From a virus (taxonomy: Duplodnaviria; Heunggongvirae; Uroviricota; Caudoviricetes), in the IMG/VR virus record IMGVR_UViG_2609459850_000003: a stretch of DNA of 8,164 nucleotides; one strand, written 5' to 3'. Of the stretch, positions 3,874 through 8,164 are shown piece after piece (position 1 is the first letter of the stretch; each line of letters begins with the position of its first letter). Made by a program: the position numbers and the translations under genes. The notes under the pieces were generated by a model. The model had not been told where the DNA came from. It did no database searches and saw only the letters and a program-made list of their open reading frames with translations.

Positions 3874-4833
3874 TTAATTCACCATCAGTCTTAGAGCCAG
3901 TTCTTCCGGATAGGGATCGAAGTAATTCTGTGTAAGCAAGTAATCATTAGGATACTCACCCAGATAATGCTTCAGCAGAGTCAACGGCGCAAGAAGAGGC
4001 AATGTGCCAAAGCGATAGTTAAGTATAACCTCGCTCAACTCTTTACGCTGGCGTGTACTTAAGTAATTACTAAAATACCCCTGTATATGCATCAGCACAT
4101 TCGTGTGATTTTTACGTGATGCTGGTTTTCTGAGAATCGCCATCAGATTATCACGATACACCTCAAAGTATGATTCAAGGTCCGCCCACTCGTGTATTGC
4201 AGCCACAAATGGTCCCATATCTTTATAGCCTGCCTGGCTATGCGCCAACAACTGAAGCTTATAACGACTATGAAAAGCTAATAACTCTCTTCTTGATAAT
4301 TTCTCCTTGTAAAGATGATTGAGCTCATGCAAAGCAAAAACTCTTTCAATAAAATTCTCACGAAGCACTGGATCATGTAATCGCCCATCCTCTTCAACCG
4401 GTAGCCAGGAAAACTTTTCCATCAAAGTGCTCGTAAATAGTCCCACTCCATCTTTACGACCTCGATTACCATTTTCATCATAGACACGCACGCGCTCCAT
4501 GCCACAGCTGGGAGATTTAGCACAAACCACAAACCCCGATACATCCTTTAATTTGTCCATATAAGAACGACTAAACTCTGTCATTCTCTCTGTCACATCC
4601 TCATTCTGGTCGTGGCTGAAACACATCCGTATATTTCCTTGCTTCGAGCGCACAAGTCGTAGAGCAGGACGCGGAACTGGCAGCCCTATAGCCATTTCCG
4701 GACATACTGGTCTGAATGTTACCCATTCCACTAATTTGTCCATTAAAAAGTCATCTCTTTTGTGACCACCATCAAAACGAACAGCAGAACCGCCCAAACA
4801 ACCGCTGATCCCAATCACAGGTTTTTTTATCAT
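3874..4833 (-). CDS. DUF523 (TudS-like [4Fe-4S] thionucleobase desulfidase) fused to DUF1722 (YbgA-like); RudS-like
   Basis: 319-aa ORF; ATG at 4833 with strong RBS GGGGGAGG. N-terminus MIKKPVIGISGCLGGSAVRFDGGHK...PVCPE...KSPSCG matches the recalled DUF523/TudS pattern with three conserved Cys positioned as Fe-S ligands. The C-terminal roughly 170 aa are helical, consistent with DUF1722. The domain call is from recalled signatures, not a search. Confidence 0.75.
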   Translation of the reverse strand: MIKKPVIGISGCLGGSAVRFDGGHKRDDFLMDKLVEWVTFRPVCPEMAIGLPVPRPALRLVRSKQGNIRMCFSHDQNEDVTERMTEFSRSYMDKLKDVSGFVVCAKSPSCGMERVRVYDENGNRGRKDGVGLFTSTLMEKFSWLPVEEDGRLHDPVLRENFIERVFALHELNHLYKEKLSRRELLAFHSRYKLQLLAHSQAGYKDMGPFVAAIHEWADLESYFEVYRDNLMAILRKPASRKNHTNVLMHIQGYFSNYLSTRQRKELSEVILNYRFGTLPLLAPLTLLKHYLGEYPNDYLLTQNYFDPYPEELALRLMVN

Positions 4834-5025: not shown

Positions 5026-5550
5026 ATGAAGTTATGGCCTGTGTTGACTGGCATTGCACTCTCTTTCACTCTTATAGCATGTAAGGCCCCGACACCACCT
5101 AAAGGTGTGCAGCCGATTACAAATTTTGACGCCAACCGCTACCTCGGAAAATGGTATGAAATAGCTCGCCTCGAGAACTGGTTCGAACGTGGTCTGGAAC
5201 AGGTCAGCGCTACTTATGAAAAACGGAACGACGGAGGGATTCGCGTACTTAACCGTGGATACGATCCAACGAAAAACAAATGGAGCGAGAGCGAAGGTAA
5301 AGCATACTTTACTGGAGATACTAAAACTGCAGCGTTGAAAGTTTCGTTTTTTGGCCCCTTCTATGGTGGCTATAATGTAATCAAACTGGATGATGAGTAT
5401 AAGTATGCTCTTGTCAGTGGTCCGAACAGAGAATACCTATGGATTCTGGCAAGGACCCAAACTATTCCAGATAATGTAAAAGCAGACTATGTGCGTACCG
5501 CTCAAAAGTTGGGATTCAATGTCAATGAACTATTATGGGTTAAACAATAA
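5026..5550 (+). CDS. Bacterial lipocalin (Blc-like outer-membrane lipoprotein)
   Basis: 174-aa ORF; ATG at 5026 with CAGGA 6 nt upstream. Lipoprotein signal with lipobox L-I-A-C. Lipocalin SCR1 motif NFDANRYLGKWYEIARLENWFERG and downstream KVSFFGPFYGGYNVIKLDDEY...YLWILART closely parallel E. coli Blc as recalled. Confidence 0.9.
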   Translation: MKLWPVLTGIALSFTLIACKAPTPPKGVQPITNFDANRYLGKWYEIARLENWFERGLEQVSATYEKRNDGGIRVLNRGYDPTKNKWSESEGKAYFTGDTKTAALKVSFFGPFYGGYNVIKLDDEYKYALVSGPNREYLWILARTQTIPDNVKADYVRTAQKLGFNVNELLWVKQ

Positions 5551-5578
5551 AATCCCCACCCGAAATGATACTTATTAG

Positions 5579-5605
5579 AAAAAAACCAGCCTTTGGGGAG
5601 GCTGG
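5579..5605 (-). terminator. Rho-independent terminator on the minus strand, candidate tR' of the phage late operon
   Basis: Stem CCAGCCT (5586-5592) / AGGCTGG (5599-5605) with a 6-nt loop, followed on the minus strand by seven U (A-run 5579-5585 on plus). About 100 nt downstream of the Q stop, matching the lambdoid pR'-tR' architecture. No T-run follows on the plus strand, so it is not a good terminator for the lipocalin gene. Confidence 0.6.
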
Positions 5606-5705
5606 CTAAATCAGGAAACAAGCTGTTATATGATAATAACTACGTTGCGATTCCAACATTTAAAATGTTAGACTAATGAAAATCAGACAGCAACTTTTCC
5701 TTTAA
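5606..5705 (-). promoter_or_regulatory. Putative late promoter pR' / qut region between Q and the tR'-like terminator
   Basis: Position is immediately downstream of Q and upstream of the intrinsic terminator. Contains a 7-1-7 palindrome AACATTT-a-AAATGTT (5655-5669) and several -10-like hexamers on the minus strand (TATAAC, TTAAAT). Exact -35/-10 not assignable by eye. Confidence 0.3.
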
Positions 5706-6083
5706 TTATTTCGAACAATCAGCATCCATCTCCAATCGGAGATCCAACACCATCAGCATGCCCTCCACTACGCCCTCAGCTTTCTGGAGCATCCTGCCAA
5801 CCCAACAATCAGATCGCCCATGCTTACGTGCAAGCGCCATAAAAGTCATGCCGCCGACATAATAGTCCACCAATAAATCATGTAAATCGCTGTTGTTTTT
5901 TTTCAGGCGAGCCATACATTCACAAATGATCATCGCGTCATCGTCACAGCATTGCGGACGAGATCTTACTTTTGAAGGAATTAATCCCTTAAAACCGGCG
6001 GCAATGGACGACCAGGTCACATCTTCATGATTATTAGCCGCCCATGCCCCCCAACGCTCAAGAACCATCTGAATATCACGCAT
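5706..6083 (-). CDS. Phage late-gene antitermination protein Q (phage 82/21 QuuD-like type)
   Basis: 125 aa from ATG at 6083 with RBS GGAG 7 nt upstream (the ORF-track start at 6098 is TTG). Sequence [24 protein letters not shown]...[32 protein letters not shown] closely resembles DLP12 QuuD as recalled, including the Cys cluster. Located immediately upstream of the late promoter/terminator and lysis genes. Confidence 0.8.
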
Positions 6084-6100
6084 CAACTTACTCCACAAAA

Positions 6101-7150
6101 TTAGGCCAGCACACCAATTGCCAGCGCGCGATCGATAAATCGAAAAATCAGCTCCAGTTGGGAGCCATACTTCTCTTCAAATGCCACGGTATCCGTATGC
6201 AACTCGTCGTGATGCTTTCTGCACAAAGGCAAAACAAAGAGATCATGTGCTTTGGTTCCCATTCCGCCCTGCCCGTGACCAATCAGATGATGCGGATCGT
6301 CGGCTGGCATACCGCAGCAAGCACACGGCTGTGTCTTAACCCAGCGTGTGTATTTCTCCTTAACCCACCGGTGACGTTTAGGCAGCTTCATGAAAGATTC
6401 CGGAGACTCTGGATCAACGGTGATGCTTACCACCGTCTTTTCCTGTGATGGGTTTTGTTGCTGGTGGGCGTGAGGCAACGGTGCAAGATTTTTTGTGCGC
6501 TGTTTCAATATGCTGGTGGCGGTCTGCTCTCCCGGTACGATGTCGCTTTCGCGGTACACCGAGCAGATTTTTTCCGCTGGTAATCCCAGCGAGCGACGTA
6601 ATACCGCTTCCGGTAGCGCGTCCGCCAGCTGATTGCGGACCGCCCACCAGGATAATTCAGCCAGAGATAATTCACGCTCCTGCGTACCGCTTATTGCGTG
6701 ACCGATGACGTCAATCATCCATGCTGACAGGTTTTGATGAGCAAGTTGCTCGAGTGATTCGGATGTCTGGTCACGCAGCTGGTTGTCGCAGTGCCAGCAC
6801 AACACCATTGCGCCGGTACCATATCGGTGAATAACGGTTTCGCTGTGATGATAATCGCCGTGTGGCCACTGGCAGGATTTAATATGGCGCAACAGCCAGT
6901 CAGACAATGCACCAGCACCACCAGCAGCACGAATTACCCGTGCGTTACTGAAAAACGGCAGCAATGTTTTGTCTTCCACCAGCGGCTGGCGAACGGCAGG
7001 AACGACCCCGGACGGCAGATTACGCATGCTTTTCGGTTCCGGCTCCACCAGTACCCGGGTATTGTGGAATACCGGCATGGATTCACGGCCCGGCTTAACG
7101 ACCACCAGCCCGAGTTCCGGTACCAGAACAGGTCGAAGTAATACCCGCAC
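6101..7150 (-). CDS. YdfU-like prophage protein (349 aa) with C-terminal Cys/His-rich YbcO-like putative zinc-binding/nuclease motif
   Basis: GTG start at 7150 preceded by GGAGG, with the upstream gene's TAA lying between the RBS and the start (coupled). Same length and genomic position (immediately upstream of Q) as Qin YdfU as recalled. C-terminus ...[45 protein letters not shown] resembles the small nin-region protein YbcO (DUF1364). Confidence 0.75.
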
Positions 7151-7151
7151 G

Positions 7152-7430
7152 TTACCTCCAGATGCGTTGCTGGAATGTACGGGACGGACGCGGTGGGCGT
7201 TCGGAGTAAGGCAATCTGACTGAGATTATCCAGTGACGGTAGTCGAGACTAAGGGCTTTCTTAACCTCGTATCCGCGCCTGCGGTAACACTGAATTATCC
7301 ATTCAGCCTGCTCTTCAGTGCATGGAGGGTGTTGGAACCATTCAGACTTGAATGCGTGAGAATACCGCTCGTGCGTGCAGACAAGAACGGGCGAATTATC
7401 AGAATTGTAATATTTTACGTTGCGTGCCAT
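7152..7430 (-). CDS. Hypothetical phage nin-region protein (92 aa)
   Basis: ATG at 7430 with GGAG 7 nt upstream. Its stop is 1 nt from the YdfU-like start, so the two are likely co-translated. Contains Cys/His residues (LVCTHERYSHAF...HPPCTEE). No family recognised. Confidence 0.55.
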   Translation of the reverse strand: MARNVKYYNSDNSPVLVCTHERYSHAFKSEWFQHPPCTEEQAEWIIQCYRRRGYEVKKALSLDYRHWIISVRLPYSERPPRPSRTFQQRIWR

Positions 7431-7496
7431 CGGTTTTCTCCGGTGGCACGGTGTTACTCAGCGGGAGTTCAGCCCCGCGCAAGATTGTAGATGAGT

Positions 7497-7748
7497 TTAT
7501 TCTTCTGCAAAAGCTGAAAAGCCTGCTTTTATTCCGATCTCTTTCAGTGCCTGTAATGAAGTGACAAACTCACCTTCGCGCAAGATAAATCCGTCTGTCA
7601 CTCGACCATCCACAAAATTAATTAACGCAGCCCCATTCTTTCGCAAACACATAATGCGGTAATGACTAACAAGATTTCCATTTTCAACGCACACAGCATA
7701 GAGGCCATCTTCACAAAAATTTTTACGCAGTTCTTCGATATTCATCAT
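7497..7748 (-). CDS. Hypothetical phage protein (83 aa), possibly Rem-like
   Basis: ATG at 7748 with RBS GGAAGGA 5 nt upstream. Same length and relative position as rem next to ydfU in K-12 Qin as recalled; no sequence-level confirmation is possible here. Its upstream region is cut by IS1. Confidence 0.55.
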   Translation of the reverse strand: MMNIEELRKNFCEDGLYAVCVENGNLVSHYRIMCLRKNGAALINFVDGRVTDGFILREGEFVTSLQALKEIGIKAGFSAFAEE

Positions 7749-7830
7749 CAGAATCCTTCCGGATAATTAGCTCTCCCCTTTAAGGGACCATCCCTCTTAT
7801 CCCTGCGCGCTACTTAAGTATTTTTGATTC

Positions 7831-8164
7831 GGTAATGACTCCAACTTACTGATAGTGTTTTATGTTCAGATAATGCCCGATGACTTTGTCATGCAGCTCC
7901 ACCGATTTTGAGAACGACAGCGACTTCCGTCCCAGCCGTGCCAGGTGCTGCCTCAGATTCAGGTTATGCCGCTCAATTCGCTGCGTATATCGCTTGCTGA
8001 TTACGTGCAGCTTTCCCTTCAGGCGGGATTCATACAGCGGCCAGCCATCCGTCATCCATATCACCACGTCAAAGGGTGACAGCAGGCTCATAAGACGCCC
8101 CAGCGTCGCCATAGTGCGTTCACCGAATACGTGCGCAACAACCGTCTTCCGGAGCCTGTCATAC
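7831..8164 (-). mobile_element. IS1 insertion sequence, terminal 334 bp (continues beyond window end)
   Basis: Terminal inverted repeat ggtaatgactccaacttactgatagtg begins at 7831. The following sequence encodes the InsB C-terminus on the minus strand and matches IS1 as recalled nearly base for base. Confidence 0.9.
7846..8164 (-). CDS. insB: IS1 transposase InsB, C-terminal part (5' end outside window)
   Basis: Translation ...[88 protein letters not shown] is the canonical InsB C-terminus. TAA stop at 7846-7848 sits just inside the IS1 terminal repeat. The frame stays open to the window edge. Confidence 0.9.

Follow-up and report, generated by a model that had tools for sequence, protein, structure and literature searches.

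What has the end of an IS1 element, lying just in front of a small prophage gene, done to the transcription of that gene and to the DNA that once lay beyond it? The initial annotation of this stretch of 8,164 nucleotides (hereafter the window) placed an IS1 terminal repeat from position 7831, about 80 bp upstream of an 83-aa ORF, and proposed that the insertion had removed the native promoter of that ORF together with the early-region genes beyond it, and that the operon might now be driven from the IS junction. From the analysis below, the most probable explanation is that an ordinary IS1, through an IS1-associated deletion that cut the rem promoter candidate, has come to abut a Qin-like defective prophage with its IRR end, 82 bp upstream of rem. 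The features on which this reading depends are collected in Table 1.

Table 1. Features of the rem region and of the IS1 joint in the window, with the distal IS1 joints of three related E. coli genomes
Feature	Position	Strand	Basis or remark
Antiterminator Q	6098 or 6083..5706	-	Pfam Phage_antitermQ, 8e-51
YdfU/DUF968	7150..6101	-	Pfam DUF968, 6.5e-77
92-aa ORF	7430..7152	-	ORF list; 66 bp after rem
Promoter-like TTTGCA-16-TACAAT, 9/12	7484..7511	-	Overlaps last codons (3' end) of rem, 54 bp upstream of 92-aa ORF
rem, 83 aa, antirepressor of the Qin repressor DicA	7497..7748	-	ORF list; 'protein Rem', WP_000981003.1, in identical DNA
82-bp remnant of the native rem upstream region	7749..7830	-	Last four -10 bases, presumed start region, leader, ribosome-binding site
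rem ribosome-binding site GGAAGGA	7754..7760	-	Read directly; kept in three of four lineages
Leader block GCGCGCAGGGATAAGAGGGATGGTCCCTTAAAGGGGAGAGC with small CCC/GGG hairpin	7770..7810	-	Four-lineage alignments
Best IS1/flank hybrid promoter candidate TTGGAG-16-AATACT	7817..7844	-	-35 in IRR (7844..7839), -10 in flank (7822..7817); low-threshold scan
GAAT, surviving bases of the native -10 TAGAAT	7827..7830	-	Joint puts CC for TA; alignment with IS-free allele
Right-end 334 bp of IS1A-type IS1	7831..8164	-	insA and insB' read toward rem
IRR (IS1 right terminal inverted repeat), GGTAATGACTCCAACTTACTGAT	7831..7853	plus-strand reading	Read directly
IS1 transposase, C-terminal part (InsB'/InsAB')	7846..8112	-	Stop codon 7846-7848; frame runs past window end
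ES3 distal joint, distal 9 bp GAGGACGCG	BL21 map 5410		IRL abuts 12 bp before dicB start codon
S1-CAM-01-A distal joint, distal 9 bp GAAAAAGTG	BL21 map 8101		IRL abuts 3' end of rspB
D72 distal joint, distal 9 bp AACTGGTAA	BL21 map 10017		IRL abuts inside rspA

The last base of the window falls within IS1, and the other IS1 end lies outside it. All 334 IS1 positions match the complete 768-bp IS1 copies of three E. coli chromosomes, D72, S1-CAM-01-A and ES3 (L001, L004 and L005), where PGAP labels the element 'IS1-like element IS1A family transposase' with a programmed frameshift. The IRR was read exactly where the terminal repeat had been placed, with a gap to the 83-aa ORF of 82 bp, and it pairs with the IRL GGTGATGCTGCCAACTTACTGAT at the opposite end of the 768-bp copies. 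The terminal inverted repeats of about 23 bp that characterize the IS1 family (GGTRATG...CCAACTTACTGAT) are present, the IRR in the window and the IRL in the relatives. The C-terminal transposase ORF matches Pfam DDE_Tnp_IS1 (E = 5.7e-48, profile positions 44-131 of 131), and its end corresponds to the end of the annotated transposase CDS in one of the chromosomes (L001, 9416); since this ORF is on the minus strand, the IS1 transposase genes point at 7831. The InsA/InsB' organization with DDE_Tnp_IS1 reached by a -1 frameshift is found, the insA part lying beyond the window edge, and the element is 768 bp long in all three relatives. The segment is the IRR end of an ordinary complete IS1, and a chance match is ruled out. 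In terminal repeat and DDE_Tnp_IS1 C-terminus, and in the 768-bp length and programmed frameshift of the relatives' copies, it is no different from the IS1A-type IS1 of E. coli and Shigella; what is particular is its location and the missing 9-bp target duplication, which is absent because one IS1 side has been deleted.

The rem gene starts 82 bp from the IS1 end and is read in the same direction as the IS1 transposase frame. It is followed on the same strand by the tightly packed 92-aa ORF, YdfU and Q genes (5706..7430); no Pfam family matched either Rem or the product of the 92-aa ORF. The Rem protein of Qin lifts the repression that DicA exerts on the dicBF promoter (a 165-fold increase was reported) and brings about filamentation that depends on DicB/DicF (Ragunathan et al. 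2023, PMC10448788). The transcription of rem itself is not described in that study, and our literature search found no published transcription start or mapped promoter for the gene. Qin of E. coli K-12 (rem-hokD-relEB ... dicCA-dicBF) and phage mEp460_ev081 have the same order of hok module, rem, ydfU, and Q, and the same region upstream of rem (99% identity for mEp460_ev081), with Rem as the DicA antirepressor; the 92-aa ORF between rem and ydfU is unannotated in both records. The present allele differs from them in that the hok module is deleted, and in the relatives the whole dicA/dicC immunity region is deleted as well. Within ydfU, D72 has a 73-bp deletion relative to the window (6461-6533) that frameshifts the gene, which is annotated there as a pseudogene; the 349-aa ydfU frame is kept in the window, ES3, and S1-CAM-01-A.

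The native state of the region could be read from IS-free alleles. With a 200-bp probe spanning the joint, the intact allele was found in 2,944 of 5,426 complete E. coli genomes. Identity between the window and IS-free alleles (BL21(DE3), K-12, and others) reaches 7830 and breaks exactly at 7831, with the hokD terminator and hokD lying beyond the joint. In the direction of rem, the intact allele consists of hokD, its intrinsic terminator (AACCCGCTTCGGCGGGTT followed by a T run), a promoter-like site TTGAAG-18-TAGAAT (9/12), a leader of 75-80 nt, and rem. In K-12, relE and relB come after hokD, which confirms the hok/rel modules that the initial annotation had named for K-12 Qin; the closest IS-free allele, of the BL21 type, is without relBE, unlike K-12 Qin. 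The promoter scan placed TTGAAG-18-TAGAAT at 4426..4397 of an IS-free allele (L003) and identified no other promoter-like site from the hokD terminator to rem; hits of this kind were no commoner in the scan than in shuffled sequence.

The IS1 joint cuts the -10 hexamer of this site as TA|GAAT. Because the joint falls inside the hexamer, rem is no longer preceded by the -35 and the first two -10 bases of its putative promoter, by the hokD terminator, or by anything that lay beyond them. No other credible promoter was found in the retained 82 bp, where the nearest approach, TGGTCC-16-AATTAT (7/12), would start transcription inside the ribosome-binding site. The native promoter thus appears to have been removed, as had been proposed: the sole promoter-like site before rem is interrupted by the joint, and the scan identified no credible intact one in the interval 7749-7830.

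We compared the region among four diverged lineages: Qin/BL21 (the same in mEp460_ev081), PPompW/Stx2a phages (81% identity), Rac of strain 442/2 (74%), and Rac-SA53. They share a layout in which a TTGnnn hexamer is followed, after 16-18 nt, by TAGAAT, then by 16 bases that vary in sequence but not in number, and by a strongly conserved leader block ahead of the ribosome-binding site and ATG. Neither Rac type is related to Qin in the DNA preceding TAGAAT, yet each has a TTG-type hexamer at 16 nt (TTGAGG in Rac 442/2, TTGCCT in Rac-SA53). Among 80 closely related rem loci of IMG/VR, 79 have both hexamers unaltered, and the remaining one, which is without the leader motif used for placing the ATG, is unclassified. 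It is likely but unproven that TTGAAG-18-TAGAAT is the rem promoter, as a phylogenetic footprint rather than a mapped start site. No LexA box (CTGT-N8-ACAG, at most one mismatch) was found between the hokD terminator and rem (L003 4319-4480). Rem resembles the Gifsy antirepressors GfoA and GfhA, which are likewise small antirepressors acting on a short, non-cleavable repressor (PMC10448788), and differs from them in that GfoA and GfhA are under LexA control, whereas rem in the IS-free allele has no LexA box nearby. A perfect 10-bp palindrome, TACTTAAGTA (7811-7820), follows closely on the cut -10, where transcription presumably starts; it occurs in the Qin and PPompW types and is absent from both Rac types.

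Across the four phage lineages the leader block (L003 4340-4380, L008, L009, and L091) is better conserved than the rem coding sequence. Its core, GCGCGCAGGGAnAAGAnGGATGGnCCC(loop)GGGGA, always begins 16 nt after TAGAAT. The hairpin formed by the core is small and invariant, with no compensatory changes among the four lineages, and we therefore make no structural claim for the leader RNA. The block could be an operator or a leader RNA element. An Rfam search gave no match in the leader or at the junction, and two weak matches elsewhere in the window, far below the gathering scores. One of these, at 5577-5620 on the minus strand between a lipocalin gene and Q, is to 'Betaproteobacteria toxic small RNA' (28.6 bits, gathering score 50, E = 0.014); it is probably due to chance or to a terminator-like hairpin.

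The joint itself is rare. It is present in three of the 5,426 complete genomes (D72, S1-CAM-01-A, and ES3), and exact-pattern scans for a 40-nt joint sequence gave no match among contigs of metagenomes, viruses, or species-representative genomes. The DNA that the window shares with the three genomes is 100% identical in D72 and S1-CAM-01-A, and in ES3 all but 3 positions agree. The IS1 copies of the three genomes are identical at all 768 positions, as is the proximal flank TTTTGATTC, which breaks at 934 on the BL21 map; the distal ends fall at three different points (Table 1). The 9-bp target duplication that the initial annotation proposed to look for at the other IS1 end is absent from all three, the proximal TTTTGATTC differing from each of the distal 9-bp sequences. 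This makes the joint a deletion or recombination joint rather than a simple insertion. No complete genome was found with IS1 at the rem site and hokD still beyond it. The early genes beyond IS1 are gone, as had been suggested: hokD and the replication and immunity genes, including a dicA/dicC-type pair, are missing from the three genomes, and two of them have also lost xis/int and host DNA (part of rspAB).

An identical IS1, no duplication, and three distal points indicate that the early and immunity region has been deleted to nested extents. IS-promoted adjacent deletion classically leaves one IS end fixed and the distal endpoints nested, and such deletions, as well as deletions by IS-by-IS recombination, have been described for IS1, IS903, IS150, and other elements (PMC11708052). 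The features shared with the published deletions are a constant IS end and flank, varied distal endpoints, an intact IS, and no target duplication; in addition, the missing DNA is contiguous in the IS-free allele. Here, in contrast, the series extends across natural isolates and does not come from a selection experiment. The element is a plain IS1, and the event a deletion associated with it in a cryptic prophage; both are of known kinds, and no new system is involved. The joint in the window would then be one side of such a deletion, represented in the relatives by the same IS1 at three nested distal points.

The rearrangement can be either transposase-mediated adjacent deletion or recombination between IS1 copies, and the dicB joint bears on the choice. 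The rspA and rspB distal joints each occur in one genome only. The IS1|dicB joint of ES3 recurs at the same nucleotide in 17 other genomes, which makes 18 with ES3. Two of the 17 were examined (NT1F10 and strain 54). Both have an IS1 variant of 95% identity, whose 40 differences all lie outside the last 213 bp next to the IRL and whose IRR side abuts a truncated ydfJ (IS1 at 8433-9200 of L092 and L093), which means that the rest of the prophage is gone. Both genomes are rich in IS1, with at least 40 matching IS1 pieces each, and the pattern is most simply accounted for by crossovers between IS1 copies. The dicB joint data therefore point to IS-by-IS recombination for at least some of the steps. 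What these two genomes have lost takes in the late prophage half with rem and Q, and the loss is probably due to such recombination between IS1 copies.

These observations give some weight to another order of events, in which the rem|IS1 joint is itself a deletion endpoint: IS1 would first have inserted 12 bp upstream of dicB, and a subsequent intramolecular transposition, or a recombination with a second IS1, would have produced the rem joint. The recurrence of the dicB joint at one nucleotide is consistent with this order, as are the truncated ydfJ and variant IS1 of NT1F10 and strain 54, which fit crossovers between copies, and the lack of any genome with a simple insertion at rem plus a duplication. 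However, a shared rem joint with differing distal ends is equally well explained by a fixed IS1 that shed DNA from its IRL end, and the rspA and rspB joints were found in a single genome each. We regard this order as possible, though somewhat less likely than not. If the rem joint were instead the primary insertion, with a duplication of TTTTGATTC, an intact promoter would have been regenerated at the IRL side, reading into IS1, until it was deleted.

Two further observations concern IS1 in this part of the prophage. In the 18 genomes with the dicB joint, the IRL stands exactly 12 bp ahead of the dicB start codon, dicB being a cell-division inhibitor gene (ES3, L005 10169-10183; L092 and L093 9201-9215), and presents an outward TTGGCA hexamer; dicBp, dicF, and dicA are deleted in the three of these genomes whose context was examined. 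In PigCaeca_1 (L002), two inverted IS1B copies (5173-5940 and 8248-9015) bracket a DUF4209 gene between hokD and dicB; this pair and the gene replace the replication and immunity region in what looks like a composite-transposon arrangement.

Returning to the reading of the joint as an IS1-associated deletion that cut the promoter candidate, we considered how rem would now be transcribed. The consensus matches and the conservation of the candidate suggest that rem has lost a regulated promoter. Any remaining transcription would come from a weak IS1/flank hybrid, from insAB' read-through, or, in D72 and S1-CAM-01-A, from an rspA(B) transcript entering IS1. To judge from these sequences, the most likely net result is low, unregulated rem expression rather than activation. 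Since DicA is deleted in the relatives, Rem is functionally orphaned there.

The second of these routes could account for most rem expression if rem had become the distal gene of a transcript that starts at the IS1 pIRL or, in D72 and S1-CAM-01-A, at the host rspA promoter, and runs through IS1. The antirepressor would in that case have come under starvation/CRP-type or InsA control. The genes insAB', rspA', and rem are co-directional, a pIRL-like promoter (CTGCCA-16-TATGAT) reads toward rem, the rspA promoter of D72 and S1-CAM-01-A is directed into IS1, and no intrinsic terminator is predicted in IS1 or in the rem leader. Entry of upstream host transcription into IS1 insAB' has been shown experimentally (PMC12428005). 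In ES3, however, the gene beside the IRL, dicB, points away from IS1, and only pIRL would be available. IS1 also has a strong polar effect within operons, and pIRL, a weak promoter, is repressed by InsA; low read-through into rem is to be expected on both counts. We think it rather unlikely that read-through is the main source of rem expression.

The proposal made in the initial annotation, that a hybrid promoter formed at the IS1 end drives rem, and possibly the 92-aa ORF, YdfU, and Q, at a higher or constitutive level, fared less well. In passages of a review (PMC9330008) that cite Prentki 1986 and Olliver 2005, IS1 is among the elements whose terminal repeats supply the -35 hexamer of fusion promoters, with blaTEM-1 on pBR322 and acrEF in Salmonella as examples. 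The locus resembles these cases, as summarized there: an IS1 end precedes a gene by 82 bp, its repeat holds a -35-like hexamer, and the flank is A/T-rich; the rem leader and ribosome-binding site are also fully kept, and TTGGAG-16-AATACT has a workable spacing. Yet no site reached the threshold of the standard promoter scan (9/12) at the IS1/rem junction. The hybrid candidate appeared only in the low-threshold scan, where it scored 7/12 (3/6 in the -35 and 4/6 in the -10), below the 9/12 of the native site it would replace. Its hexamers are poor; in the cases summarized by the review, activation was selected for and measured. Strong expression of Q beside intact holin, lysozyme, and Rz genes would be expected to harm the cell, as would strong expression of Rem in a cell that still has dicA and dicBF. 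We consider activation from the IS1 end improbable.

The downstream genes, moreover, may have their own promoter. The promoter-like site TTTGCA-16-TACAAT is also present in the IS-free allele, and is the only one at scan threshold within 7400-8164, in a scan whose hits at threshold were no more frequent than in shuffled sequence. It may serve the 92-aa/YdfU/Q genes as a promoter of their own, independent of the IS; given this separate site, these genes need not depend on the IS junction. The scan thus lends no support to an operon driven from that junction.

A wider reading, in which the joint hit an undescribed conserved promoter and leader of rem and read-through then made dicA-dicF-dicB toxic, so that nested deletions were selected in all three relatives, seems very improbable; it would make rem a switch that induces DicA-type prophages, here cut from its signal and exposed to unregulated IS1 read-through, the locus a natural record of IS-triggered 'activate, then delete' prophage domestication, and TAGAAT-16 nt-GCGCGCAGGGAnAAGAnGGATGG the place to seek the missing inducing signal.

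With the IS1-associated deletion as the preferred explanation, the joint is a rare, strain-specific event of a textbook kind that matters little alone. As a natural case it shows cleanly how a cryptic prophage can be eroded step by step from a fixed IS end. Its analysis also brings out a conserved architecture that shows the probable location of the rem promoter and leader and that may be of use in finding the signal to which this antirepressor gene responds. Rem is the only known DicA antirepressor, and strains with the joint would be natural promoter-knockout alleles for studying how rem is controlled, a question that the Qin/dicBF literature leaves open.

The left end of the window also lies in an insertion sequence. 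Positions 1-362 are the end of an IS5-type element (ISKpn26-like), with the terminal ...CTTATTCGCACCTTCC at 347-362, joined about 80 bp past the rzpQ stop. None of D72, S1-CAM-01-A, and ES3 has an IS5-type end at the corresponding position, where D72 and ES3 continue with prophage DNA on the cspI side. With an IS5-type end on the left and IS1 on the right, the prophage fragment is bounded by IS elements on both sides in the genome from which the window comes.
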